Shown: piece by piece, positions 38,832-51,814 of the stretch | Position numbering within the stretch: the stretch's first letter is position 1 | Layout of the letters: each line of letters opens with the position of its first letter | Source: a bacterium | Lineage (GTDB): Bacteria > Actinomycetota > Acidimicrobiia > Acidimicrobiales > Bin134 | NCBI GenBank assembly: GCA_026705465.1 | Contig: JAPPAP010000013.1 | Location: 7,172-71,171 of the forward strand | Length of the DNA: 64,000 nt | Reading direction: 5' to 3' | Notes under the pieces: generated by a model | The model's database searches: none | Seen by the model: the letters and a program-made list of their open reading frames with translations, nothing else | What the model was told of the DNA's origin: nothing | Made by a program: the position numbers and the translations under genes

Positions 38832-40010
38832 ATGACCCTGAACTACGCCTACGAATGCGCCATAGCAGGCATCGGCGCCACCCCCTTCACCAAGGACTCG
38901 GGCCGCACTCCCATGGACCAAGCGGTGGAGGCCTGCCTGGCCGCTTGCGAGGATGCGGGTCTACCGCCCGAAAAGGTCAACGGAATGGTGACCTACTCGG
39001 CCGAGCAGAACCCCGAGATCGAGGTAGCCCGCAATCTGGGCATCGAAGAGCTGACCCACTTCTCCATGGTCCACCACGGCGGCGGAGCGGCCTGTGGGGT
39101 GATCGCAGTGGCCTGCCAGGCCGTCTACTCCGGCGCGGCCGACTATGTGCTGTGCTACCGGGCCTTCAATGAGCGCTCCTGGCACCGCTTCGGAGCCGGG
39201 GTGCAGGACCGGCCCGCCGGCGCAGAGGCGTCAGAGGTCAGCTTCTCGTGGAGCTCGCCCTTCGGACTGGTCACACCGGCCTCCTGGGTGGCCATGTTCG
39301 CCACCCGCTATATGCACGAGTACGGCGCCACCACTGAAGACTTTGGCCGAGTGTCAGTGGTGGACCGCGACTTCGCGGCCACCAACCCCTACGCCCACTT
39401 CTTCCAGCGGCCCATAACCCTGGAAGACCACCAGAACAGTCGCTGGATCGTGGAGCCGCTGCGCCTTTTGGACTGCTGCCAGGAAACCGACGGTGCCCAG
39501 GCCTTGCTGGTGACCACCGCCGAGCGGGCCAAGGACCTCAAGCAGAAGCCGGCGGTGATCGCCTCAGCCGCCCAGGGCGTCGCCGAAGACCAGCACATGA
39601 TGAAGAGCTACTACCGGGACAGCATCACCGGCATCCCCGAGATGGAGCTGTGCGCCCGCCAGCTTTACCAGTCGAGCGGCCTGTCGGCCGACGACATCCA
39701 AACCGCCATCATCTACGACCACTTCACCCCTCTGGTGCTTCCCCAGCTCGAAGAGTTCGGCTTCTGCGACCGGGGCGAGGCCAAGGATTTCATCCGCGAC
39801 GGCCACCTCCAACGAGACGGGCGATTGCCCATCAACACGAACGGAGGCCAGCTCGGCGAGGCTTACATTCACGGCCTCAACGGCATCGCCGAGGGGGTCC
39901 GCCAGATCCGAGGCAACTCGGTGAACCAGATCGACAACGTGGAGAACGTTCTGGCTACTGCCGGCACTGCCGTGCCCACCAGCGCGCTCATTCTCTCCCA
40001 GCCTCGCTGA
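38832..40010 (+). CDS. ltp2: Ltp2-like thiolase-fold steroid side-chain aldolase
   Basis: YRAFNERS, DCCQETDG, IYDHFT, GEAYIHG; follows chsH as in the mycobacterial igr operon. Confidence 0.85.
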   Translation: MTLNYAYECAIAGIGATPFTKDSGRTPMDQAVEACLAACEDAGLPPEKVNGMVTYSAEQNPEIEVARNLGIEELTHFSMVHHGGGAACGVIAVACQAVYSGAADYVLCYRAFNERSWHRFGAGVQDRPAGAEASEVSFSWSSPFGLVTPASWVAMFATRYMHEYGATTEDFGRVSVVDRDFAATNPYAHFFQRPITLEDHQNSRWIVEPLRLLDCCQETDGAQALLVTTAERAKDLKQKPAVIASAAQGVAEDQHMMKSYYRDSITGIPEMELCARQLYQSSGLSADDIQTAIIYDHFTPLVLPQLEEFGFCDRGEAKDFIRDGHLQRDGRLPINTNGGQLGEAYIHGLNGIAEGVRQIRGNSVNQIDNVENVLATAGTAVPTSALILSQPR

Positions 40011-40026
40011 CGCCCGAGATACGATG

Positions 40027-40054
40027 AATCCCCGGTACGAAGAGCCGGGGAATT
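40027..40054 (+). terminator. GC hairpin after ltp2 (possible terminator)
   Basis: AATCCCCGG..CCGGGGAATT; no long U tract. Confidence 0.35.
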
Positions 40055-40144
40055 GGCACGGCCCTACTCCTGAGTCCATTAGCTTGTGTATGCTCCCGGC
40101 TGACAGAATGATCCGAGATAGGACCTAACGAAAGAGGCCCAACT

Positions 40145-40474
40145 ATGGAATTCAGCCACGACCGCTCCGGTGACACTCTGGTAGTCAATGCTTCTGGCCG
40201 GGTCGACGGATCCAACGCATCGGATTTCCTGGAGTCCCTTCAAGGATTGTTCGATCCCGGCGACCAGCGAATCATCCTGGATCTCGGCGGTCTCGAGTAC
40301 ATCAGCAGCGCCGGGCTGCGGGTACTGCTGATGGCGGCCCAGAATCTCGACAAGCAGAACAAGTCCTTCAGCATCTGCTCCTTGACCGAGTCGGTGGGCG
40401 ATGTTTTCCGTATCAGCGGCTTTGACCAAATCATCAACGTCTTTCCATCGGTAGAAGCAGCCAAGCAGGGGTAA
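40145..40474 (+). CDS. STAS anti-sigma-factor antagonist
   Basis: GRVD, YISSAGLR phosphoacceptor Ser, FRISGF. Confidence 0.92.
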   Translation: MEFSHDRSGDTLVVNASGRVDGSNASDFLESLQGLFDPGDQRIILDLGGLEYISSAGLRVLLMAAQNLDKQNKSFSICSLTESVGDVFRISGFDQIINVFPSVEAAKQG

Positions 40475-40478
40475 ACCC

Positions 40479-41630
40479 TTGACCCAGCCCTACAAGATCC
40501 TGGTCGTTGATGACGAACCGGATCTTGAACCTCTGATTCTTCAGCGGATGCGGCGGCACATCCGCGCCAATGAATACGAGTTCGTCTTCGCTCAGAACGG
40601 CGTGGAGGCGTTGGAGAAGCTCAACGCCGATTCGACAATCGACATGGTGTTGTCTGACATCAATATGCCCAAGATGGACGGGCTCACCCTGCTCCAGCAG
40701 CTCCCCGGGGTCGACCCCAATCTCCGTGCGGTCATCATCTCCGCCTACGGAGACATGGAGAACATCCGCACCGCAATGAACCGAGGGGCGTTTGACTTCG
40801 TCACCAAGCCCATCGACTTCGACGACCTCAAGATCACCATCTCTCGCACTCTGGAGCATCTGGCGGAATGGCGAGAGGCGCTGTCATCTCGTGATCAGCT
40901 GGTGGCCCTCCAAAACGAGCTGAGTATCGCCAGCCAACTCCAGCAATCCATCCTGCCCAAGAAGCCCCCGGTGAGTGACGAGTTCGAGGTCTCGGCCAAC
41001 ATGGAGCCGGCCCGAAACGTTGGTGGCGACTTCTACGACTATTTCAACCTGGAGGACCACATCGGCCTCGTGGTCGCCGATGTGTCCGACAAGGGCATTC
41101 CCGCATCGATGTTCATGATGTCCAGCCGAACCGCGCTCAAAGGTGCAGCCATTGGCGTCCGCGAGCCTCATATGGTGCTGTCCGAAATCAACAATCAGCT
41201 CCAGCAGGACAACCCCACGTTCATGTTCGTCACGCTGATCTACGCATTGTTCAATCCGAGCACCGGCTCTCTCACCTACTCCATCGCGGGCCATGACCCT
41301 CCGCTGCTGATCAGCGCCGACGGCTCCGTCACCGAACTGCCACTCACCAAGGGCGTGGCGCTGGGAATTGCCCCCGACGTCGTCTATACCCAGGAATCGG
41401 TCACCTTGGCCCCAGGCGACACCGTGGTCCTGTTCACCGACGGAGTAACCGAGGCCATGAACACCGATAATCAGCAGTTCGGGCTTGAGCGATTGACCGA
41501 GGTGTTCGAAGGCAAATCCCCCACTAGCGCACTGGAAGCCAACGAGGCTGTGTTCAACCAAGTACGGATTTTCGCCGGAGATGCCCCTCAGTCCGACGAC
41601 ATAACCTGCCTCACGCTGCGACGGCCCTGA
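40479..41630 (+). CDS. Response regulator (REC) fused to SpoIIE/PP2C phosphatase
   Basis: VVDDE, SDINMP, TKP; GGDFYD, ADVSDKG, FTDG, DDIT. Confidence 0.93.
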   Translation: MTQPYKILVVDDEPDLEPLILQRMRRHIRANEYEFVFAQNGVEALEKLNADSTIDMVLSDINMPKMDGLTLLQQLPGVDPNLRAVIISAYGDMENIRTAMNRGAFDFVTKPIDFDDLKITISRTLEHLAEWREALSSRDQLVALQNELSIASQLQQSILPKKPPVSDEFEVSANMEPARNVGGDFYDYFNLEDHIGLVVADVSDKGIPASMFMMSSRTALKGAAIGVREPHMVLSEINNQLQQDNPTFMFVTLIYALFNPSTGSLTYSIAGHDPPLLISADGSVTELPLTKGVALGIAPDVVYTQESVTLAPGDTVVLFTDGVTEAMNTDNQQFGLERLTEVFEGKSPTSALEANEAVFNQVRIFAGDAPQSDDITCLTLRRP

Positions 41631-41685
41631 TGTCTGTGCCCGCCCGATCGCTGCCCCCGACCCCCCGTACTCGGAATCGCTGAGA

Positions 41686-42117
41686 ATGCACCGCTCGCTG
41701 CACCTATCCCACCCCCCGGAGCAGGGCCACCCATCGGATGTTTTGCCGCTGATCGAAGACATGCTCAATGAGATGGCCGAGGCAGAAGACTGGCCCGTGA
41801 CCTTGACGATGCGGGCCAACCTCATTCTGGAAGAGTTGGTGCTTAACACCCTCACCCACGGCGATACCAGCGGTCTCACCGAAATCGACCTTGAACTGGA
41901 GTCCGAGGATCACGCGCTCACGATCCGCCTGGCCGATGACGGATCTCCCTTCAACCCGCTTACGGACGCACCCGAACCCGATGTCAACCTTCCCTTGGCC
42001 GAGCGTCCGATCGGAGGGTTGGGGGTCTATTTGGTCAAGACAATGGGCGAGGATCTCGAATACCGCCGGGAAGACGACCGCAACCACCTCAAGCTTGTCG
42101 TACACCCCGAGTCGTGA
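41686..42117 (+). CDS. RsbW-like anti-sigma Ser kinase (HATPase_c_2)
   Basis: EELVLN..HG, DDGSPF, GGLGVYLV. Confidence 0.88.
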   Translation: MHRSLHLSHPPEQGHPSDVLPLIEDMLNEMAEAEDWPVTLTMRANLILEELVLNTLTHGDTSGLTEIDLELESEDHALTIRLADDGSPFNPLTDAPEPDVNLPLAERPIGGLGVYLVKTMGEDLEYRREDDRNHLKLVVHPES

Positions 42118-43403
42118 GGGATTCGACACAGAGAGTTCTTCGCAGGTCGCGGTTAGCCGGCCTTGCCATCGCTGCCTGGGCTCTGGTGCTGTCGGGGTGC
42201 GGATCCGATGCTTCCGAGCCCGCACAACCCGATCCGACCGCCACCGCGACCGCTGGACCAGCCCAAGGCCCCGCCCCTAGTACTGGAGTCCCGGGAGTGT
42301 TCGACGACCGAGTGGTGTTCGGACAGTCGGCAGCCTTCAGCGGTCCCGCCCAAGAACTGGGCATCAACATGAACCTGGGCATCAAGGCCGCGTTCGAAGA
42401 GGCCAATCGAAATGGCGGCGTGCACGGGCGCATGTTGGAGCTCATCACGCGAGACGACGCATATGAGCCCGAAGCAGCCATCACCAACACCCAGGCGCTG
42501 ATCAACGACGAGCGGGTGTTCTCGCTCATCGGCGCGGTGGGCACGCCGACTTCGCGCTCGGCCACGCCGGTGGCGGCTGAAGCAGGCATCCCCTATGTGG
42601 CACCGTTCACTGGAGCTGGCTTTCTTCGAGACGACAACTGGGAGAACATCATCAACCTCCGGGCCTCCTACGCCCAGGAAACCGAGGAGATGGTCGAGCG
42701 GCTAACCACTGATCTGGGAGTCACTCGAATCGCAGTCATGTTCCAAGACGACTCGTTTGGACGGGCCGGGTACAACGGAGCGCTGGCTGCACTCGAACGC
42801 CGGGGAATGGAACTCGTGGCCACCGGCGTGTATCCCCGCAATACCACCGCAGTGAAGTCGGGGCTGCTCGACTTGAGGCTGGGCGATCCCGAGGCGGTGA
42901 TCCTTATCGGGGCCTACCAGCCGGTCGCCGCCCTCATCTCCTGGGCCCGCCACATAGGCTTCGATCCCATCTTCATGACGGTCTCGTTTGTGGGCAGCAA
43001 CGCGTTGGCCGACGAACTGGGATCGGGTGGCGAGGGCGTGTACGTCACCCAGGTGATTCCTTTTCCCACCGACGTGTCGACTCCCGTAGTGGCTTCTTAT
43101 ACCGCCGCGCTGGCGGCGTATGACCCGGCGGCCGAACCAGGATTCGTGTCCTTGGAGGGCTACATAGCCGGCCGACTGGCTATCGCAGGGTTGGAAGGAT
43201 GCGGTGCTGACCTCACCCGCGACTGCTTCCTGGAGAACATCTTGGGCGCGGGTCAATTCGATATAGACGGATTCGCCCTGGACTTCGGCGCCGAGGCAGA
43301 CCGGACAGTGGACAACCAAGGCTCTGATGCCGTCTTCTTGACCGTGATCGACGCCAACGGTAGGTACCGGTCGGAGGCTTCAATGGGAGATGCCAGCCCG
43401 TGA
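42114..43403 (+). CDS. Solute-binding lipoprotein, periplasmic binding protein type 1 (branched-chain/amide-like)
   Basis: LSGC lipobox, GQSAAFSGP, NGGVHGR, DDAYEP, NLRASY. Confidence 0.88.
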   Translation: MRDSTQRVLRRSRLAGLAIAAWALVLSGCGSDASEPAQPDPTATATAGPAQGPAPSTGVPGVFDDRVVFGQSAAFSGPAQELGINMNLGIKAAFEEANRNGGVHGRMLELITRDDAYEPEAAITNTQALINDERVFSLIGAVGTPTSRSATPVAAEAGIPYVAPFTGAGFLRDDNWENIINLRASYAQETEEMVERLTTDLGVTRIAVMFQDDSFGRAGYNGALAALERRGMELVATGVYPRNTTAVKSGLLDLRLGDPEAVILIGAYQPVAALISWARHIGFDPIFMTVSFVGSNALADELGSGGEGVYVTQVIPFPTDVSTPVVASYTAALAAYDPAAEPGFVSLEGYIAGRLAIAGLEGCGADLTRDCFLENILGAGQFDIDGFALDFGAEADRTVDNQGSDAVFLTVIDANGRYRSEASMGDASP

Positions 43404-45631
43404 CCGAGTCAACCCCCCTACAGGACTCTCAGGCCACTGCCAGTACGGCTGGTGCACAGCGGCCCGCGATCCATCGCCGGATCTCCACCCAGCTGTACGC
43501 GGGGATCTTTGGGGCGGTCGTGCTGACAATTGTGGCCAGCGTTGTGAGCTGGATCTCCTTCAACAACGTGGATCGCAGTCAAAAGAGGGTCAGCGAGGAG
43601 AGTGTGCCCGAATTGGCCGGGGCGTTTTCGCTGGCGGAGTTCAGCAACGCGCTCGTGGCCGCCGCTCCCCGACTCACCACTGCTCCTCCCGCCCAGTTCC
43701 CAGAGATCTCCGCTGAGGTAACCATTGCCCAGCAAGAGTTCCAAGCCCGCTTCGATGCCTTACTGCGCCAGAACCCCGATGACGTTCACGTCCAAGGAAT
43801 TGCGGAGGCCGCCAACGCCTTGGAGAGAAACATCACCACGATCACGGCCGATATGCCCCACTTCTACAGCCTGAGCAGAAGGATCGAAGTACTCCAGGTT
43901 CAGATTCCCTTGCTGCATGATGAGGTTGAAGGCATCATCATCCCCGCCATCGACGATCAGCTTTTTTTCCAGGTCACGGGATATCGGGATCAGGTATCCG
44001 ACCCGATTGACCCCATGACCCGAACGTCGGGAGACGAGCTGCTCCTCTATCGGCATCTCAACGCCTTGCAGGCCGACATGGCTCAAGTCACCGAGCTGAT
44101 GGGCAGCGCCCTCATCGCCTCAGAAGCTGATTTTGTGGAGCCGCTGATAGAGAGCTTCGAGTCCGCAGAAGACCGGATCCAGATCAGCTTGTCGGCCATC
44201 GCCGCATCAGAGGTCGCCCCGGGGCTGGAAACGGCAGTCGACCGGCTCTTGGACTTGGGAAACGGCAACGACAGCGCATTCCGAGTTTCGGTTGACCGTT
44301 TGGACATCATCGTGCGTCAAGACAGTCTCCTGGCCCAGAACCAGGAAGTCGCAGTCAATCTCCTCGCCGAGGTCAACGCACTGGTCCAAACAGCTCAAGC
44401 CGGCGCCGACCAGGCCACCGAGAACTCAGCGCAGACCATCAATACCGCTCGCATCCTTTTGGTGATCATCAGCGTCATCGGCGTCATAGGAGCGGGATTG
44501 ATCAGCTGGCTCTTTGTGGGCCGCGTGCTGCTGCGCCGCATCGGACGACTGTCCGGTCGCATGAGAACGCTGGCCAAAGGCGACTTGGAGGAGGAGATTG
44601 AGGTCAGCGGTCGCGATGAGATTGCGGAGATGGCTTCAGCGCTGGAGGTGTTCCGCCGCCACGCTCTGGAGATCCAGCGATTGAACCTGGTGGAACAGCT
44701 TGCCCAGGAGTTGAGCGAGCGGAACGACGAGCTGCAAGCAGTGTTGGAAGAGCTAGGACAGGCCCAAGATCAAATCGTTGCCCGGGAAAAATTGGCCGCG
44801 CTGGGCGAGGTCACCGCCGGTGTGGCTCACGAAATCCGCAACCCGCTCAACTTCATCAACAACTTCTCCGCAGCTTCGGTTGAATTGCTGGAGGAGATGG
44901 CCGAGATCTACGAGGAAATCATCGACAATCTCTCCGATGCGGACAAAGAACTCATCGAGGAGATCAACCAAGACCTAAACGACAACCTCGAGCGCATCCA
45001 AACACATGGAAAGCGGGCCAACCGAATCGTTCAGGACATGCTGTTGATGGGCCGAGGCGGAGGTGAGACCCAGCTGACCGACATCAACGATCTCATCCAT
45101 GAGCACTCCCTGCTGGCCTACCACAGCGCCCGAGCTCAAGATCCCGAGTTCCAGGTCTTGTTGGAGGAGGAGTTCGACCCCGACATGGGCCAACTAGATG
45201 TTGTCCCTCAAGACTTGGGCAGAGTGTTCTTGAACTTCGTGGCCAACGCCGGCTACGCCACCAACAAGAAGCAAAAGGAAATGATAGAAGCGGGAACAGT
45301 GGGCGACTACACCCCCACCGTCGTATTGAAGAGCCGTCGCACCGAAGACAGCGCCATCCTCAGCGTCCGGGACAACGGCAGCGGCATTCCCCCCGATGTA
45401 GCCGCCAAGATCTTCGACCCGTTCTTCACCACCAAGCCCACCAACGAAGGCACCGGATTGGGTTTGGCTTTGTCCAACGACATCATCCGCGAGCACGGCG
45501 GCACCATCACCGTCAACACCGAGCCCGGCGAGTTCACCGAAATGGTGGTGGAACTCCCGCTGACACGGGCCAAGAGCACGCCGCTGGTTGAAGGCGACGG
45601 GGACGGAGACGCAGGCGGAGACGATTCCTAG
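43400..45631 (+). CDS. Membrane sensor histidine kinase, TorS-like sensor domain + HAMP + HisKA + HATPase
   Basis: Two TMs around a long helical domain; RDEIAEM HAMP; AHEIRNPL; DNGSG, FFTTK, GTGLGL. Confidence 0.88.
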   Translation: MTESTPLQDSQATASTAGAQRPAIHRRISTQLYAGIFGAVVLTIVASVVSWISFNNVDRSQKRVSEESVPELAGAFSLAEFSNALVAAAPRLTTAPPAQFPEISAEVTIAQQEFQARFDALLRQNPDDVHVQGIAEAANALERNITTITADMPHFYSLSRRIEVLQVQIPLLHDEVEGIIIPAIDDQLFFQVTGYRDQVSDPIDPMTRTSGDELLLYRHLNALQADMAQVTELMGSALIASEADFVEPLIESFESAEDRIQISLSAIAASEVAPGLETAVDRLLDLGNGNDSAFRVSVDRLDIIVRQDSLLAQNQEVAVNLLAEVNALVQTAQAGADQATENSAQTINTARILLVIISVIGVIGAGLISWLFVGRVLLRRIGRLSGRMRTLAKGDLEEEIEVSGRDEIAEMASALEVFRRHALEIQRLNLVEQLAQELSERNDELQAVLEELGQAQDQIVAREKLAALGEVTAGVAHEIRNPLNFINNFSAASVELLEEMAEIYEEIIDNLSDADKELIEEINQDLNDNLERIQTHGKRANRIVQDMLLMGRGGGETQLTDINDLIHEHSLLAYHSARAQDPEFQVLLEEEFDPDMGQLDVVPQDLGRVFLNFVANAGYATNKKQKEMIEAGTVGDYTPTVVLKSRRTEDSAILSVRDNGSGIPPDVAAKIFDPFFTTKPTNEGTGLGLALSNDIIREHGGTITVNTEPGEFTEMVVELPLTRAKSTPLVEGDGDGDAGGDDS

Positions 45632-45641
45632 GCGGTCTCCA

Positions 45642-46205
45642 TTATCGGGATGGTCTGAGCAGCACCCCGCTTATCGCTGCTGCCGCCCCTCCGGCATAGG
45701 CCACAAATAGGCCCAATCCGACCTCAGACCCGGCCGCATCCAGGTCATCGTCCATGGCCAGTCCTTCCGCGACGCAAAACGCCATGACGAAGAGTCCGGT
45801 AGCCGCAACCATCAGCCACATCGGCTGACCGTTGCCAGCCAGCACCGAAACCAGCAACGCCCACAGCACCACCGCAGTGGCCACAATCAGCAGCCAGGTG
45901 TCCGCCACATCTCCGGGACCCACCCACCACGGGATGTCGCCGTCTAGTACTCCCCGATGGCCAGAGGAGTCTTCAGCCCAGGGAAGTACCAGCCCGGCGA
46001 CCAGCAAGCCCACCGCAGATCCCAACAAGGCGAGCCCAGTTCTTTCCCGACTCGAGGAGGAGCGATTGCCGTCTCCAGCGTATGGGGCCCCAACTGTCCT
46101 GGGCATCGGCTCGGCCCACGATTCGCCATCCCAATATCGAAATCCACGCTGGCCCTCGTCGGAATACCAGCCCGGTGGTGCCCGACGAGTCGGCGGGTCA
46201 CTCAT
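45642..46205 (-). CDS. DUF2510-like membrane protein
   Basis: PPGWY..RYWDG..W followed by about four TMs. Confidence 0.75.
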   Translation of the reverse strand: MSDPPTRRAPPGWYSDEGQRGFRYWDGESWAEPMPRTVGAPYAGDGNRSSSSRERTGLALLGSAVGLLVAGLVLPWAEDSSGHRGVLDGDIPWWVGPGDVADTWLLIVATAVVLWALLVSVLAGNGQPMWLMVAATGLFVMAFCVAEGLAMDDDLDAAGSEVGLGLFVAYAGGAAAAISGVLLRPSR

Positions 46206-46699
46206 TCCGACTCCACGTGATCGGTATAGCGCACATCTCCCTTGGACAGGTCAAAGGTGAGGTGCTCTCGCATGTCCCCGATCTGGTCGACAATCACCAG
46301 CCGGCGGGCGAACCGCCATTGCCCCTCGTTCAGTGCGAAGTCGTCTTCGTAGCGGCCCGCGACGATGGGCTGCAATGGTAGGGAGTCCGTGCCCTGGTGA
46401 ACGGCGAAGTATGAGCGGGCACTGGCCGTCTGCCCGTCTTCAGCGACGTCTACGATCACATTGCTGGCCACATGTCGGGTGCGCAGCGTGCCGTCGCCGT
46501 GGACTTTGTTGGTGGCTGCGTAGAACGCGGCCACGTCATCACCGGACATGCCGTCGTCGGGATCGGCCGCGCTGGTGGAAGTGAGCACTCCGTGGGAGAA
46601 CAGCTCACCGAGTTCATCGAAGCGAGCCAAGTCCACGCATTCGGCATAGGTATACATGAGGGCCTTGATCGACCGCACTGCCTGCTCGCTGGGAGTCAC
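46202..46699 (-). CDS. SnoaL-like/NTF2 family protein
   Basis: YAECVD, TRHVASN, ARSYF, GRYED; GTG 46699 with TAGCTT 7 nt upstream. Confidence 0.82.
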   Translation of the reverse strand: MTPSEQAVRSIKALMYTYAECVDLARFDELGELFSHGVLTSTSAADPDDGMSGDDVAAFYAATNKVHGDGTLRTRHVASNVIVDVAEDGQTASARSYFAVHQGTDSLPLQPIVAGRYEDDFALNEGQWRFARRLVIVDQIGDMREHLTFDLSKGDVRYTDHVESE

Positions 46700-46751
46700 G
46701 GAAGCAAAGCTAACCCACCTCAACCCGCGGTGGCCCGGTAGCGTCAGAAGC

Positions 46752-47813
46752 GTGAACCCGAAAACAGGGAGGCTCACGGCCTACAGCCACGGCGCCGGTT
46801 GAGCCGGCAAGCTCGGACCAGCCGAGTTGGCGCAGGTCATGCGCTCCCTGCCAGCTCAAACCCACGAAGACCTGATCGTGGGCACGGAAACCGGAGATGA
46901 CGCCGCAGTGTGGCGTCTCGGGGAAGGCCGCGCCCTGATCTCGACCGCTGATTTCTTCGCACCAGTAGTCGACAACCCCCACACGTGGGGGCGCATCGCG
47001 GCCACTAACGCAGCCTCCGATGTTTATGCCATGGGCGGCACGCCCCGATTCGGGCTGAACCTGGTGGCCTGGCCCCACGGAACTCTTCCCCTGGACATTC
47101 TCACCGAGGTGTTGGCGGGCGGGGCCGCAGCCGCTGCGGACGGAGGTTGGGCGGTGGTGGGCGGCCACACAGTCGATGGGCCCGAGCCAATGTACGGCCA
47201 AGCCGTCACCGGTGATGCCGATGAGGAGAGCCTGCTGACCAACGCCGGGGCCCAGCCAGGGCAATCCCTGGTGCTGACCAAGCCGCTGGGCACTGGGCTG
47301 TTGGCCACTGCAGTCAAGCGCTCCGAACCGGATGCCGTCGCACCCGGCGGATGGCTGGCCGAGACCTACGACGCTGGCATCGCCGAAATGACCCGGCTGA
47401 ACGACAAGGCTGCCTTGGCAGCCCTCGAGGCCGAAGCCACTGCGGCCACCGATGTCACCGGCTTTGGCCTACTCGGCCACCTCCTGAAGATGGTGGCGGC
47501 CAGCGGTACCGGCGCAGTGATATGGGCCGAAGCGGTGCCGGTGCTTCCCAACGCCTGGGAGTTGCTGGATCAGGGGTTCGCTCCCGGCGGCACGGCTCGC
47601 AATCTGGAGCATGTACGGCCGCAAGTGAAAGGGAGCAACGACCACCGGATGTTGACGATGCTGGCCGACGCCCAGACCTCCGGCGGCCTGTTGTTCTGCT
47701 GCTCCCCGGCTGCGGCCATCGACGCAACTGCCAATCTCACTGCCGCTGGCCATACCGCAGCAGTGATCGGCGAGCTCACCGCTACCGATCCTGGAGCTGT
47801 GGTGGTGGCCTAG
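46752..47813 (+). CDS. selD: Selenide, water dikinase; selenoprotein form with in-frame UGA (46800-46802)
   Basis: MNPKTGRLTAYSHGAG-U-AGK aligns with E. coli RLTQYSHGAGCGCK; DDAAV, DFF, SDVYAMGG, GGHT, TDVTGFG, QTSGGL; TAGCGT 7 nt before GTG. Confidence 0.93.
46803..46831 (+). promoter_or_regulatory. Candidate bacterial SECIS hairpin
   Basis: AGCTCGG(46810-16)/CCGAGTT(46822-28) stem with ACCAG loop just after the UGA. Confidence 0.5.
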
Positions 47814-47823
47814 GGACCGCTGA

Positions 47824-48486
47824 CTAGTCGGCAGGTTCGGTACGGGGAGGCAGACCGTCCAGGTGGGCGGCGTCGTTGTACCGCACCAGCCGCCACACTC
47901 CGGGATCGTCGGTGGTCACGAACTCGGTAATGGATGTATTGAGGGTCCAGAGGACGAACTGGGTATTCATTCCCAGGCCCATAAACAGTCGCATTGCAAT
48001 ATCGATGACCCCGCCATGGCAAACCACCATCATGGTGGTACCGGGATTGCCCTCGACCAGCTCGTATAGCGCCTGACCAGTGCGGTAGGAGAAAGCAGCC
48101 AAGCTCTCCCCTCCCGGTGCCAGCGGCATGTGGGGGTGGAAGTCGCCGGTCCACTCGAACAGGTTGCCGAACTCCTGGTAACCCACGCCATCGGCCTCGC
48201 CGGGGCGGCGCTCTACCAGATCGGGATGGGTGTGGATCTTCAGCCCGCCCAGCGAAGGGGACAGCAGTTCGGCCGTCTCTATAGCCCGAGGCAGGGTGCT
48301 GGACCACAGCGCGTCCACTTTGGGCTCATAGCCCTGCATCCAGCGCTTTCCGAGCGCCTCCGATTGGTGGCGGCCCAGCGGCGACAGCCCTGTACAGAAG
48401 AGATCGCCGCCGATGATCTGTTTGACCGTCACCTCCGATTCGCCGTGGCGGATCAACAGCAAGCGGGTTCGTTCACCGGAGCTCAT
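47824..48486 (-). CDS. Histidine phosphatase family protein
   Basis: LIRHGES, RAIETA, VCHGG, LNTSIT, YNDAAHL. Confidence 0.9.
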   Translation of the reverse strand: MSSGERTRLLLIRHGESEVTVKQIIGGDLFCTGLSPLGRHQSEALGKRWMQGYEPKVDALWSSTLPRAIETAELLSPSLGGLKIHTHPDLVERRPGEADGVGYQEFGNLFEWTGDFHPHMPLAPGGESLAAFSYRTGQALYELVEGNPGTTMMVVCHGGVIDIAMRLFMGLGMNTQFVLWTLNTSITEFVTTDDPGVWRLVRYNDAAHLDGLPPRTEPAD

Positions 48487-48590
48487 CGCGGCCCCATCTT
48501 GCCACGCCGAGCGTCGGCGTCGGGCTTCGTCGCAAGCAACTTCGTCAACCTGTGGCAATGCAGCCCTGGCATGGGGCAGAATCTCTAACG

Positions 48591-49217
48591 ATGATGTGGG
48601 GGACGTTGGTACTCATCGTGGCTTTTGCAGCCGGTGCAGTCCCGTTCTCCTACATGATTGCCCAGTCGCTGGCCAGAACCGACTTGCGCCAAGTGGGAAC
48701 CGGAACGGTCTCGGGAACCAGCCTGTACCGGGTGACCGGATTCATACCGTTGGTGGTAGGAGGCCTGTGCGATGTGGGAAAGGGCGCTCTCGGACCGTTC
48801 TTGGCCGGCGATCGCTGGCTGCTGATGGCGTTCGCGGGCGCGGTGTCAGTGATCGGCCACAACTGGTCGATGTTCCTGAACGGCGCCGGAGGCCGGGGTC
48901 TGTCACCGGCACTGGGGGCATTTGCAGTGATCGCCTGGCCCGCGGCGCTGTTCCTGTTGGGCGGACTGGCTCTCGGACGTATCTTGCGGCACACCGGGTT
49001 GGTGGTGTTCATCACCATGCCGGCGCTGCCTCCGTTCCTTCTGCTGGTGGCTGATGGCAAAGCCGCCATTGCCAGCACCGTGATCGTCGTCCCCATTTTG
49101 ATCAAGCGCGTCTTGGGCAACCAACCGCTGCCTGCTCCCCATCGCTGGAGAGCCGCCGCCCACCGACTGGTATTCGACAACGACAGCTGGGTCTCAGCCA
49201 CCCCGTCTAACCCTTGA
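48591..49217 (+). CDS. PlsY-like glycerol-3-phosphate acyltransferase (divergent motifs)
   Basis: GAVPFS, DLRQVGTG, DVGKG, IGHNWS..GGRG. Confidence 0.75.
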   Translation: MMWGTLVLIVAFAAGAVPFSYMIAQSLARTDLRQVGTGTVSGTSLYRVTGFIPLVVGGLCDVGKGALGPFLAGDRWLLMAFAGAVSVIGHNWSMFLNGAGGRGLSPALGAFAVIAWPAALFLLGGLALGRILRHTGLVVFITMPALPPFLLLVADGKAAIASTVIVVPILIKRVLGNQPLPAPHRWRAAAHRLVFDNDSWVSATPSNP

Positions 49218-49320
49218 TACTTCGCATCCCAGTCGATCCAAGAAAACCTGCTCCATCCCCACTACGCCGGGAATCGCCCTTGATTCTCGTAGCTTCAGCC
49301 GACAATCCCAGTCGAGAACA

Positions 49321-50580
49321 TTGAGCCTTCGCACCAAGGTCGACTTCCGTCGACTCCTCGTCGGACAAGGGGCGTCTGCACTGGGCGACTGGATGGGCAC
49401 CTTTGCCCTCATGGCACTGGTGGACCACCTGAGCGACTCGGCTACCGCGGTGGGTGGCATCCTCGCCTTCCGGCTCATCCCCGCGGCATTGGGAGGAACC
49501 CTGGCCGCCAAACTGGTGAGCCGATGGGACCGCCGGCGAACCATGATCACCATGGATCTGCTGCGCGCCGGGATGATCGCGGTGGTCCCCTTCGTGCAAG
49601 AGCTGTGGTGGGTGTATCTGTGGGCGTTGGCAATGGAGGCCCCCAGCGTGGTGTTTCTGGCCTCTCGCGACTCGGCCATCCCTGATCTCGTGGACGAATC
49701 CGACCTGCCGCTAGCCAATGCCGCCATGATGGGCTCGTCATACGGCAATATCCCGATTGGCGCGGGCCTATTGATCGCGTTCGAGGCTCTGCCACTCGAC
49801 GATGGCTGGCTGGGTTCGCACCCCTACGCCTTGGTCTTTTGGGTTGACGCACTCACGTTCTTCGTTTCCGCCTACTTCATCGCCCGAGCCCTCGGTCTGA
49901 AGGGCCGGGGAGCGCCGGCTGGGGAGGTCTCCGACAGTCCCGCCTTGCCGGACGGCGATATTTCCGTATCCCCCAGCCGGTTACGCGATGCCTGGTCGGT
50001 CCCGCTGGTGCGCAGGGTCTTGCCCGCCACTGCGGCTGCAGCGGTGGGTCTGGGGGCGCTGTTCTCGCTGGGCATCAAGCTGGTGCAGGAGGAGCTGAAG
50101 GCTTCTGATCTCGAGTACTGGGTGCTTATCGTTTTGTTTGGCGCTGGTGCGGGCATCGGAATGGCGCTCACCCACAAGTCCCCGCATGTAGACCTGCTGG
50201 TTCTCACCCGACGGGGCGCGTTGGCTATGGGCGCGCTGGTAGCGCTAATGAGCCAGAGCCCAACGGTATGGCTGACCTTCCTCGGCGCCGTCGGGTTCGG
50301 GGCCGGGGCCACCGTTGCTCTCACGTCGGGGATGAGCGCGCTTCAAGCCCGGATTCCCCTGGAAGAGGAGCGGGTTTTGGCCTTTTCGGCCTTCCACATG
50401 GTGATCCGCATCGGATTGGGCGCTGCCGCATTGGGGGCGGGTGCAATCGGTGACGGGCTTAATGGGGCCGGGCTCCCCGGTACCCGGTCGGTGCTATTTG
50501 CGTCGGGTTTGATTGTGCTGGCCTCGGCCGCCACCGTCCGCCCGATTCTCGACGTCGACGTCAAGAGGGCCCGCGAGTGA
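49321..50580 (+). CDS. MFS transporter
   Basis: About 12 TMs; SRWDRRRTMITMDLLRA motif A variant. Confidence 0.85.
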   Translation: MSLRTKVDFRRLLVGQGASALGDWMGTFALMALVDHLSDSATAVGGILAFRLIPAALGGTLAAKLVSRWDRRRTMITMDLLRAGMIAVVPFVQELWWVYLWALAMEAPSVVFLASRDSAIPDLVDESDLPLANAAMMGSSYGNIPIGAGLLIAFEALPLDDGWLGSHPYALVFWVDALTFFVSAYFIARALGLKGRGAPAGEVSDSPALPDGDISVSPSRLRDAWSVPLVRRVLPATAAAAVGLGALFSLGIKLVQEELKASDLEYWVLIVLFGAGAGIGMALTHKSPHVDLLVLTRRGALAMGALVALMSQSPTVWLTFLGAVGFGAGATVALTSGMSALQARIPLEEERVLAFSAFHMVIRIGLGAAALGAGAIGDGLNGAGLPGTRSVLFASGLIVLASAATVRPILDVDVKRARE

Positions 50581-51398
50581 CGGTAGGCATCGTTACCGAC
50601 AGCACCGCGGCGCTGCCTGAGGAGGTGCGAACCGCCTGGGATATCGCGGTGGTCCCGCTCATGATCACTGTGGACGGCCGAACGGTGGCTGACGGGGAAC
50701 TTGACACTGCGGAGATCCTTGCCGCCAAGACCCATTCGTCTTCGGGCCCGTCGCCGGGGGCCTTTGTTCAAGCAATCGCTGATCAAGACCAGGGTGACGG
50801 TGTCGTGATCGTGACGGTGACATCAACTCTGAGCATCACCAACCAGTCGGCGGTTTTGGCCGCCAAGGGCGCGGCATGTCCGGTCGCGGTGGTGGACAGC
50901 CGCACCGCGGCTGGGGGCCAAGGACTGGTGACGGTGGCCGCGGCCCGTGCCGCCCAAGCCGGCGCGACGCTGGACGAGGTAGTAGCGAAGGCTGAGCAGG
51001 TAGCCGGACAGGTCAAGCTGGTGGGAGCTTTGGCCAACCTCGACCAGCTGATCCGCAGCGGTCGCGTACCGGGTCTGGCCGGCCGGGCCGGGAATCTGAT
51101 CGGGCTGCGCCCCATGTTCGATATCCACGATGCAGTGATACGCAGGCTTCGTCCCGCGCTCAGCGACGAGGCCGCTCACCAGCGCCTCTTGAGCCTCTGG
51201 CGGCGAACCCGACCAGCAGACGATGCCTCGCTTCACTTGGTTTGCCTCCATGCCGAGGTTCCCGATCGGGCTGCCGACCTTCTCGAAGCGGTCACCGCTG
51301 AAGTGCAGCCCGCCGACGCCTTCATCAGCCAATTCGGCCAGGCGATGATGATCAACTCCGGGACTGGGGTCCGCGGCTTGGCCTGGTACTGGGACTAG
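50577..51398 (+). CDS. DegV/FakB family fatty-acid-binding protein
   Basis: IVTDST, VVPL, SSSGPSPG, STLS, VDS, RSGR. Confidence 0.88.
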   Translation: MTVGIVTDSTAALPEEVRTAWDIAVVPLMITVDGRTVADGELDTAEILAAKTHSSSGPSPGAFVQAIADQDQGDGVVIVTVTSTLSITNQSAVLAAKGAACPVAVVDSRTAAGGQGLVTVAAARAAQAGATLDEVVAKAEQVAGQVKLVGALANLDQLIRSGRVPGLAGRAGNLIGLRPMFDIHDAVIRRLRPALSDEAAHQRLLSLWRRTRPADDASLHLVCLHAEVPDRAADLLEAVTAEVQPADAFISQFGQAMMINSGTGVRGLAWYWD

Positions 51399-51814
51399 AG
51401 AGTCTCAGGAGCGGGGGCCCAACCGCCCAAGTCGGGCATCATCTGGCGGGACACGTAGCGCCACCGCCCGTTTTCTTTGCGTAGCTGGTCGCGGTATACC
51501 CCGGTGATGGCCAGCTCTCGAGGCTGGCCGGGAGGAGCGGTGTAATACACCTCCAAGTACACCGCAGCCACCGCTTCGTCGCCGTCCCCATCGATGGACA
51601 GGTTGCTGATCACATGGCGGGTGGCCGGGTTGATCGACGCCGCGAACGCGGCCAGATCCTTGTGGCCCTTCACTCCCTCGGGCATGCCGAATTCCAGCGT
51701 GCCGTCGGGCACGAACAACTGGGCCCACGCCTCGGCCGAGCCGCTGTCGATCAAGTGGTTGTAGTCGGCGGCCAGCTTCTGGATGGCCAGGATGTCTTCA
51801 ACGGGAAGTGCCAT
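51395..51814 (-). CDS. SnoaL-like/NTF2 family protein
   Basis: DYNHLID, LFVPDG, TRHVISN, GVYRD..WR. Confidence 0.82.
   Translation of the reverse strand: MALPVEDILAIQKLAADYNHLIDSGSAEAWAQLFVPDGTLEFGMPEGVKGHKDLAAFAASINPATRHVISNLSIDGDGDEAVAAVYLEVYYTAPPGQPRELAITGVYRDQLRKENGRWRYVSRQMMPDLGGWAPAPETL

Follow-up and report, generated by a model that had tools for sequence, protein, structure and literature searches.

The 64,000-nt stretch of DNA analysed here, hereafter called the window, carries at positions 40145-45631 of its forward strand five co-oriented open reading frames (ORFs). ORF calls and Pfam searches identified them, in order, as genes for a STAS protein resembling anti-sigma factor antagonists, a response regulator with receiver and PP2C phosphatase domains (REC-PP2C), an RsbW-like serine kinase of the GHKL type, a solute-binding lipoprotein (SBP) of the LivJ/HAAT type and a membrane histidine kinase (Table 1; all positions are in window numbering). 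It is probable that the five genes constitute one signalling cassette with two coupled halves, the SBP and its TorS-like kinase serving as input and the REC-PP2C, STAS and RsbW-like proteins as output. The components and both half-mechanisms are known; it is the joining of a binding-protein/TorS-like input to a partner switch that is new. No description of the five-gene combination was found in the literature searched. Table 1 of a review of SBP-dependent signalling lists about half a dozen binding-protein/kinase pairs, none of them involving Peripla_BP_6, and neither "PP2C" nor "partner" occurs in its text (PMC8050422). A first-pass annotation of this DNA had considered the whole combination uncharacterized, which holds for the input half only; the output relay, with its unlinked sigma factor, is known as RsfS/RsfR/RsfB/RsbW2.

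In the proposed pathway, the lipoprotein would bind a small extracytoplasmic ligand and dock on the double four-helix-bundle sensor of the kinase, as TorT does on TorS, thereby altering autophosphorylation at His477. Phosphate would then be passed from the kinase to Asp60 of REC-PP2C, altering the activity of this phosphatase toward phosphorylated Ser55 of the STAS protein, and the RsbW-like kinase would oppose REC-PP2C by re-phosphorylating the same protein. The phosphorylation state of the STAS protein may in turn select its partner, be it the RsbW-like protein or a target whose gene lies elsewhere, an anti-sigma factor for example, and so set the cellular output. The polarity of the switch is not inferable because phosphorylation activates RsbY but inhibits RsfR, according to the passages of PMC10950880 that deal with these two regulators; the earlier proposal that the signal activates the phosphatase is hence not decidable.

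The spacing of the genes had been described correctly: 4 nt separate the STAS and REC-PP2C genes and 55 nt the REC-PP2C and RsbW-like genes, followed by two 4-nt GTGA overlaps in which the stop codon of the RsbW-like gene overlaps the start of the SBP gene and the SBP stop codon overlaps the start of the kinase gene. The order in which the components had been listed, with the binding protein and kinase first, is not that of the DNA. Upstream of the block, the proposed promoter TG-n-TATGCT was found to read TGTG directly abutting TATGCT (40085-40094). A scan for consensus sigma-70 promoters returned no promoter-like sites. Nevertheless, TATGCT is plausible as a -10-like element because T-A-n-n-n-T is invariant at this site in all 15 aligned upstream regions of the genus, where it is followed by a conserved AGAGAGG ribosome-binding stretch.

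The five genes are inherited together across three phyla. An SBP orthologue was present in each of the 36 sampled genomes of the window's genus and in none of 24 genomes of other families in the order, and a query with the kinase sensor domain returned a single weak match in 400 other genomes of Actinomycetota. Chloroflexota had SBP orthologues in 48 of 401 sampled genomes (E <= 1e-80), and Gemmatimonadota in 42 of 251. Loci taken for comparison comprised 20 of the 39 places listed for the genus, spanning the range of identity and including both second copies, 40 of the 50 listed for Chloroflexota, and 20 of the 42 for Gemmatimonadota, with long contigs preferred and one additional locus (L004). 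The Chloroflexota places omitted were G459 (identical to L042), those lying at or close to a contig end or matching only in part (G722, G762 twice, G743, G810 and G495) and the three most divergent (G507, G470 and G505). All five genes are present, co-oriented and in one constant order, in 18/18 primary loci of the genus, and in the window's order in 37 of the 40 Chloroflexota loci; L042 also has all five, and L140 and L143 are paralogue loci. The complete set was likewise found in 20/20 Gemmatimonadota loci and in L004 (21/21), with the STAS and RsbW-like genes on the opposite strand. The neighbourhood survey that the first-pass annotation had recommended showed the SBP and kinase genes to be neighbours in 76 of the 79 primary loci examined, and REC-PP2C was similarly found next to a membrane histidine kinase. 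The flanking genes vary between and within phyla while the block persists; even within the genus, the thiolase and ChsH2 genes that lie upstream are missing from four loci. When the ORFs of 84 loci from the three phyla were clustered and the recurrent flank clusters of Chloroflexota and Gemmatimonadota were searched with Pfam, no recurrent sigma factor, DNA-binding regulator, HAAT permease or ATPase was found in the flanks. As a separate observation, genus member G407 carries an insertion of approximately 1.6 kb between its RsbW-like and SBP genes, an overlapping pair in the rest of the genus.

Genome G458 presents the two halves apart, with the SBP-kinase pair standing alone and the STAS, REC-PP2C and RsbW-like genes together approximately 100 kb away, and in 3/20 Gemmatimonadota loci the STAS and RsbW-like genes lie 3-5 kb off. 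Such separation would suit two independent neighbouring systems, in which the SBP-kinase pair signals to an unlinked DNA-binding response regulator and the REC-PP2C/STAS/RsbW-like set is fed by other kinases, as would the observation that HsbR of Pseudomonas aeruginosa takes phosphate from several hybrid kinases via HptB, described in the part of PMC6482189 devoted to that pathway. This alternative is nonetheless considered highly improbable. REC-PP2C is the sole receiver protein in the block and adjoins the SBP-kinase pair in 21/21 Gemmatimonadota and 37/40 Chloroflexota loci, DNA-binding regulators do not recur in the flanks, and G458 retains both halves despite their separation. The co-inheritance of the relay genes with the SBP-kinase pair extends to halves that are 100 kb apart. 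REC-PP2C bridges the two, remaining with the SBP-kinase pair in Gemmatimonadota and with the STAS and RsbW-like genes in G458. Furthermore, a single database protein of 855 amino acids (aa), P0445, combines a predicted TorS-like sensor with SpoIIE/PP2C and HATPase_c_2 (RsbW-like) domains; this fusion links the sensor family directly to a PP2C/RsbW-type output and would bypass the kinase-to-receiver step.

The catalytic and phospho-acceptor motifs of the block, earlier noted to be intact, proved to be at least 98% conserved in 76-79 orthologues from the three phyla. The STAS protein scored 80 bits against the NCBIfam model ant_ant_sig, above the cut-off of 53.45, and its predicted phospho-acceptor is Ser55 in a Y-I-S-S-A-G-L motif, of which S54, S55, A56, G57 and L58 show conservation of 98% or more in 79 orthologues. 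REC-PP2C, which shows 57-68% identity across the three phyla, retains D11, D12, the predicted acceptor D60, K110 and the PP2C Asp motifs over 78 orthologues. In the RsbW-like protein, the N box (E50, N54), the G1 box (D84, G86, F89) and the G2 box (G110-G113) are conserved over 77. Receiver and PP2C functions lie in one gene and the RsbW-type kinase in a second, 55 nt downstream, and not on a single polypeptide. A search for REC-PP2C homologues of at least 672 aa, a range outside which the HsbR-like size of approximately 570 aa falls, yielded Pkinase-REC-PP2C and kinase-REC-PP2C fusions, and the notion that the two genes represent a split HsbR is kept as a resemblance only. A fusion of REC-PP2C with the SBP in Gemmatimonadota, considered on account of open frames of 787-896 aa, was rejected for L146 because the two matches sit in different frames. 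The database protein P0246 (802 aa) holds REC, SpoIIE and Peripla_BP_6 in one gene call, and could be either a true fusion with a signal-anchor or an artefact of gene calling. A Chloroflexota subgroup (L104-L113, L119, L120, L126 and L127) has two or three tandem STAS genes before the cassette, upstream of REC-PP2C, instead of one.

The kinase consists of a first transmembrane segment, a helical sensor (about residues 55-350), a second transmembrane segment, and HAMP, HisKA (with His477) and HATPase_c domains; its hydrophobic stretches, near residues 33-54 and 352-374, flank approximately 300 residues without a Pfam hit. His477 and the N, G1, F and G2 boxes are conserved in orthologues of the three phyla. 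Pfam revealed no receiver, HPt or CHASE3 domain in the protein, which also does not reach the TorS_sensor_domain model PF21689, a domain borne by many of its homologues of 45-49% identity. The NCBIfam TorS model TIGR02956 aligns to residues 41-726 with 155.5 bits, below its cut-off of 676.5, and the PgtB model to residues 28-490. As the sequence of the sensor domain retrieved no solved structure at E values up to 1, a search by fold was needed. The AlphaFold2 model of residues 30-370 (22 sequences) was all-helical, with a predicted local distance difference test (pLDDT) score of 84.8 and a predicted template modelling score of 0.70, and its best Foldseek matches in the PDB were 3o1j_A, 3o1i_B and 3o1h_A (E approximately 1e-5; target-normalised template modelling scores of 0.71-0.79), all of them TorS sensor domains solved in complex with TorT. 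The free TorS sensors 3i9y and 3i9w also matched, and McpS with malate was among the fold matches. The designation of a TorS-like kinase made earlier is therefore apt for the sensor domain, judged by its modelled fold, and does not extend to the remainder, which is that of an ordinary non-hybrid kinase with neither receiver nor HPt. TorS itself is a hybrid kinase/response regulator, as its NCBIfam name states, whereas the only receiver near the cassette kinase is that of the PP2C phosphatase. TorS signals to the DNA-binding regulator TorR.

The N terminus of the SBP is a basic, hydrophobic leader ending in the lipobox L26-S27-G28-C29, and a leader that ends at such a Cys marks a lipoprotein. 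Its closest solved relatives are 4kv7 (E 1.7e-69), 3lop and 4m88. The model of the protein (pLDDT 81) has the type-I binding-protein fold and matched these same three entries first, followed by leucine-, urea-, amide- and aromatic-acid-binding proteins. Within the LivJ/HAAT family, PRK15404 gave 56 bits against a cut-off of 477, and no named NCBIfam cut-off was reached. The ligand is probably amino-acid-like or another small nitrogen compound, on family grounds only.

Membership of the LivJ/HAAT binding-protein family would equally suit an ordinary uptake protein that serves an ABC (ATP-binding cassette) transporter encoded elsewhere and is co-regulated with a kinase that senses something else through its own helical domain. 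Docking partners for such a protein exist among the 43 BPD_transp_2 matches of the genome (3.1 Mb in 40 contigs), and direct ligand binding by TorS-like and HBM-like helical domains is possible, as the match to malate-bound McpS illustrates. This reading is regarded as very unlikely on several grounds. The SBP is the only one of the genome's 20 Peripla_BP_6 matches on the window's contig (C19, 75.8 kb), where there is no permease match, and several of the rest have a BPD_transp_2 match no more than a few kb away (e.g., on contigs C27, C29, C3 and C30); nor do HAAT permeases or ATPases recur in the flanks of the 84 loci. The SBP is moreover the best conserved member of the block, with 59-71% identity across phyla as against 35-53% for the kinase. 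Finally, its paralogues retain a TorS-like sensor partner even where the kinase part is absent, and its proteobacterial homologues adjoin chemoreceptors with the same sensor domain.

These paralogous SBPs (approximately 59% identity) were found in L088 and L095 of the genus and in L140 and L143 of Chloroflexota, and group together across phyla in an SBP tree. Following the paralogous SBP gene in L088 and L140 is one for a protein of 363-372 aa with a transmembrane segment, a sensor and a second transmembrane segment, past which there is nothing. Pfam and NCBIfam searches placed it in no family, and its homology to the kinase sensor extends along the full length of the protein (E 2e-16; hhalign probability 99.7). 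The neighbour of the paralogous SBP in L143 is a 719-aa protein carrying a tandem pair of sensor modules. Such kinase-less proteins could act as decoy or modulating receptors. Among Pseudomonadota, an SBP homologue (43-56% identity) occurred in 13 of 401 sampled genomes, and a chemoreceptor directly adjoins it in 5 of the 13 loci, two of these chemoreceptors bearing the Pfam TorS_sensor_domain; in L170 and L171, the neighbour is a CHASE-GGDEF-EAL protein. None of the 13 loci had REC-PP2C, STAS or RsbW-like matches. A profile of the sensor domain retrieved 2455 cluster representatives at E <= 0.001, of which 40 were hand-picked, non-randomly, for unusual length and scanned with Pfam; these included, besides kinases and P0445, 9 chemoreceptors, 2 nucleotide cyclases and 5 proteins without a cytoplasmic domain. 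The SBP accompanies TorS-like sensors whatever the output, whether kinase, chemoreceptor or kinase-less sensor.

Several observations weigh against the interpretation of the block as a single cassette with a dedicated co-sensor, or lessen its support. The titles of 4kv7, 3lop and 4m88 name no ligand, so that none can be assigned to the SBP from them, and literature searches on these entry codes returned only unrelated papers; the amino acid/amide-like compound of the first-pass annotation is a family-level guess. With about 20 HAAT-type transporter sets in the genome, the SBP may also have a role in uptake. The GTGA coupling of the SBP and kinase genes is not kept in Chloroflexota, where the two matches are approximately 30-60 nt apart, and in L121 an ORF of 213 aa, perhaps a truncated form, stands where the 383-aa REC-PP2C is expected. 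The loci were also hand-picked with a preference for long contigs, and are hence non-random, and since those within a phylum are kin, they are not independent trials and their counts overstate the independent support.

The closest known counterpart of the cassette as a whole is found in Mycobacterium smegmatis, where, according to the sections of PMC10950880 that treat it, RsfS phosphorylates the REC-PP2C protein RsfR on Asp, and the STAS protein RsfB is the substrate of RsfR as phosphatase and of RsbW2 as kinase. Common to both are a membrane HAMP kinase with an extracytoplasmic helical sensor between two transmembrane segments, a REC-PP2C protein, a STAS protein with its own RsbW-type kinase in the locus, and an actinobacterial host. 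The two differ in that RsfS has a CHASE3 sensor and, as presented in those sections, no binding protein, whereas the cassette has a TorS-like sensor and a Peripla_BP_6 lipoprotein gene translationally coupled to that of the kinase; a DNA-binding regulator is also part of the M. smegmatis locus but not of the cassette, and the M. smegmatis system responds to respiratory-chain status. In M. smegmatis, neither the gene for SigF nor that for its anti-sigma factor RsbW1 lies at this locus (PMC10950880), and the same applies to the targets of HsbR/HsbA and CrsR/CrsA, so the missing sigma gene is normal for this class. The RsbK/RsbY-RsbV-RsbW-SigB system of Bacillus cereus similarly has a two-component kinase controlling a REC-PP2C protein that dephosphorylates a STAS antagonist; RsbK, however, is a hybrid CHASE3/GAF kinase, sigB is part of the system, and no binding protein features in its description there (PMC10950880). 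Comparable too are HptB-HsbR-HsbA of P. aeruginosa and CrsR-CrsA of Shewanella oneidensis, in which the gene after that for the STAS protein supplies receiver, PP2C and GHKL kinase functions and the sigma target is unlinked. As outlined in the portion of PMC6482189 on these proteins, phosphorylation of the receiver toggles kinase versus phosphatase action on the STAS protein, the target being RpoS, or FliA via FlgM. In HsbR and CrsR the three domains are fused and input arrives from hybrid kinases via Hpt, in contrast to the separate genes of the cassette with their co-encoded SBP-kinase pair.

On the input side, the resemblance is to TorT/TorS, which responds to trimethylamine N-oxide in Escherichia coli and Vibrio and, in the account given by the relevant part of PMC8050422, also has a type-I binding protein as co-sensor of a kinase, a double four-helix-bundle periplasmic domain and adjacent genes with no transporter; for the cassette, co-sensing is predicted. 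TorT belongs to Peripla_BP_1 and the SBP to Peripla_BP_6, and the SBP would thus be TorT-like in role while standing outside the TorT family. A Peripla_BP_6 protein is used for signalling and not transport in BasB/BasT of Halobacterium salinarum, with a chemoreceptor partner as in the proteobacterial homologues, although that system is archaeal, has chemotaxis as its output and pairs the binding protein with a dCache-like sensor (PMC8050422, in the part concerned with BasB).

The recurrent neighbours of the block bear on its final target. An ammonium transporter (Amt) gene was found, at several positions, in the fetched region of 20/43 Chloroflexota and 11/21 Gemmatimonadota loci, and genes for CP_ATPgrasp_2, Alpha-E and transglutaminase-like proteins directly follow the kinase gene in many Chloroflexota loci, a cluster also common nearby in the Gemmatimonadota survey. 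These three families co-vary with urea-metabolism domains in marine metagenomes, as reported in a part of PMC3597751. The pattern suggests, though it does not establish, a nitrogen-related signal. It also leaves a minor possibility that the same architecture has a non-sigma output, the STAS or RsbW-like protein acting on a transporter or enzyme such as the ammonium transporter or the CP-ATP-grasp/Alpha-E/transglutaminase system; no sigma gene recurs near the block, and phosphorylated HsbA acts on a non-sigma partner, the diguanylate cyclase HsbD (PMC6482189, in its section on HsbA). In the window's genus, on the other hand, 0/20 loci have a linked Amt, CP_ATPgrasp_2, Alpha-E or transglutaminase-like gene, the Amt and CP_ATPgrasp_2 genes of the genome being on other contigs; neighbourhood within a phylum is partly inherited synteny; and the characterized relatives RsfB and RsbV work through anti-sigma factors, as set out in the passages of PMC10950880 on these antagonists. 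A more elaborate version is rather doubtful. It would make the cassette a sensor of external organic nitrogen or nitrogen status, frequent in Chloroflexota and Gemmatimonadota and acquired by a marine genus of Acidimicrobiia, the switch acting post-translationally on ammonium uptake and the CP-ATP-grasp/Alpha-E/transglutaminase system and not on a sigma factor, with the kinase-less SBP-sensor paralogues pairing with the kinase as decoy or modulating receptors.

For the preferred scheme of a partner switch with an unlinked target, candidates in the genome include a sigma factor of 277 aa on contig C9 and a second STAS-RsbW pair on C3. The HATPase_c_2 match of the latter is stronger than that of the window gene, and the pair lies between small membrane-protein ORFs and a gene for a 445-aa membrane protein, with no sigma gene adjoining. 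On contig C27, an ammonium transporter gene between HAAT-type permease genes and three Peripla_BP_6 genes looks like part of an ordinary nitrogen-uptake cluster. In 19/21 Gemmatimonadota loci, the STAS gene adjoins one for a conserved protein of approximately 400 aa whose N terminus resembles a signal peptide and whose C terminus reads ...AFAFF; searches with a 401-aa member found no Pfam or NCBIfam family, and it looks like an outer-membrane protein.

With respect to the immediate setting of the block in the window, thiolase and ChsH2-like genes lie upstream, and DUF2510 and SnoaL genes downstream on the opposite strand. The earlier statement that ABC permease, sigma factor and DNA-binding regulator genes are lacking nearby was upheld for approximately 10 kb around the block, and contig C19 as a whole holds none of the genome's 43 BPD_transp_2 and none of its 7 Sigma70_r2 matches. 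The block itself contains no Hpt gene. Its G+C content is 0.59-0.62, compared with 0.63-0.69 in most of the window, and its G+C content at third codon positions (GC3) is lower too; a tract of low GC3 (0.73-0.78, versus mostly 0.80-0.89 elsewhere) covers the cassette and roughly six genes beyond it. A terminator-like site inside the RsbW-like gene was weak, such sites being fewer than in shuffled sequences, and was given no weight.

Table 1. Positions of the cassette genes and of other features referred to in the text. Positions without a prefix are those of the window; prefixes denote surveyed loci (L), genomes (G) or contigs (C).
Feature	Position	Strand	Remarks
Plausible -10-like hexamer TATGCT	40089..40094	+	TGTG directly before; 50 nt upstream of STAS start codon
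STAS anti-sigma-factor-antagonist-like protein, 109 aa	40145..40474	+	Pfam STAS E 2.3e-19
REC-PP2C response regulator, 383 aa	40479..41630	+	Pfam Response_reg 5.4e-25, SpoIIE/PP2C 1.8e-51
RsbW-like GHKL serine kinase / anti-sigma-type protein, 143 aa	41686..42117	+	Pfam HATPase_c_2 8.6e-19
LivJ/HAAT-type solute-binding lipoprotein (SBP), 429 aa	42114..43403	+	Pfam Peripla_BP_6 7.6e-56
Membrane histidine kinase, 743 aa	43400..45631	+	Pfam HAMP 4.4e-11, HisKA 1e-8, HATPase_c 1.1e-21
Terminator-like site	42006-42023		Inside RsbW-like gene; weak, given no weight
Low-GC3 tract	40000-51400		
Kinase-less sensor protein	L088:8243-9361	+	Next gene after paralogous SBP
Kinase-less sensor protein	L140:9223-10314	+	Next gene after paralogous SBP
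Tandem-sensor protein, 719 aa	L143:5836-7995	-	Beside paralogous SBP
Chemoreceptor	L164:6300-8417	-	Beside SBP homologue (48-56% identity for the five listed)
Chemoreceptor	L165:5218-7893	-	Beside SBP homologue
Chemoreceptor	L166:9223-11883	+	Beside SBP homologue
Chemoreceptor	L167:9241-11919	+	Beside SBP homologue
Chemoreceptor	L169:5492-7915	-	Beside SBP homologue
ORF of 213 aa	L121:9886-10752		In place of REC-PP2C
Insertion in G407	L089:8251-9849		Between RsbW-like and SBP genes
CP_ATPgrasp_2	L128:11728-13188		Example neighbour among L104-L163 and L004
Amt	L132:2578-4008		Example neighbour among L104-L163 and L004
Alpha-E	L161:15826-16803		Example neighbour among L104-L163 and L004
Transglutaminase-like	L131:612-1571		Example neighbour among L104-L163 and L004
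Protein of approximately 400 aa	L004:4242-5447	+	18 counterparts in other Gemmatimonadota loci
Candidate target, sigma factor, 277 aa	C9:8497-9330		
Candidate target, second STAS-RsbW pair	C3:35748-36538		
Cluster with ammonium transporter gene	G000:C27:180619-189898		

Proteins with 73-84% identity to the kinase and SBP carry the label Candidatus Poriferisocius, and further close relatives the label Acidimicrobiia. The cassette is patchily distributed, being confined within the sampled Actinomycetota to one genus and present in 12-17% of the sampled Chloroflexota and Gemmatimonadota genomes. This pattern would fit acquisition by the ancestor of the genus. A quick SBP tree, for its part, places the genus inside neither phylum: the genus and Chloroflexota rows are on opposite sides of one branch of 88% support, the genus rows are unresolved at the base, and the midpoint root is drawn to the long branch of Gemmatimonadota. 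A donor cannot be named from this tree.

If the proposed pathway is correct, the combination of a Peripla_BP_6 protein with a TorS-type sensor would join the short list of binding-protein-dependent sensor kinases, and such an input could drive a phosphatase-based partner switch and not a transcription factor. Because SBPs of this clade have chemoreceptor partners in Pseudomonadota, a single ligand screen would be informative for several signalling systems, and the recurrent linkage to Amt and CP-ATP-grasp genes would provide a way into a gene cluster whose role is unknown. Nor is the cassette rare, given its presence in 48/401 Chloroflexota, 42/251 Gemmatimonadota and 36/36 genus genomes, and hence it could be a main environmental sensor in these poorly studied phyla.

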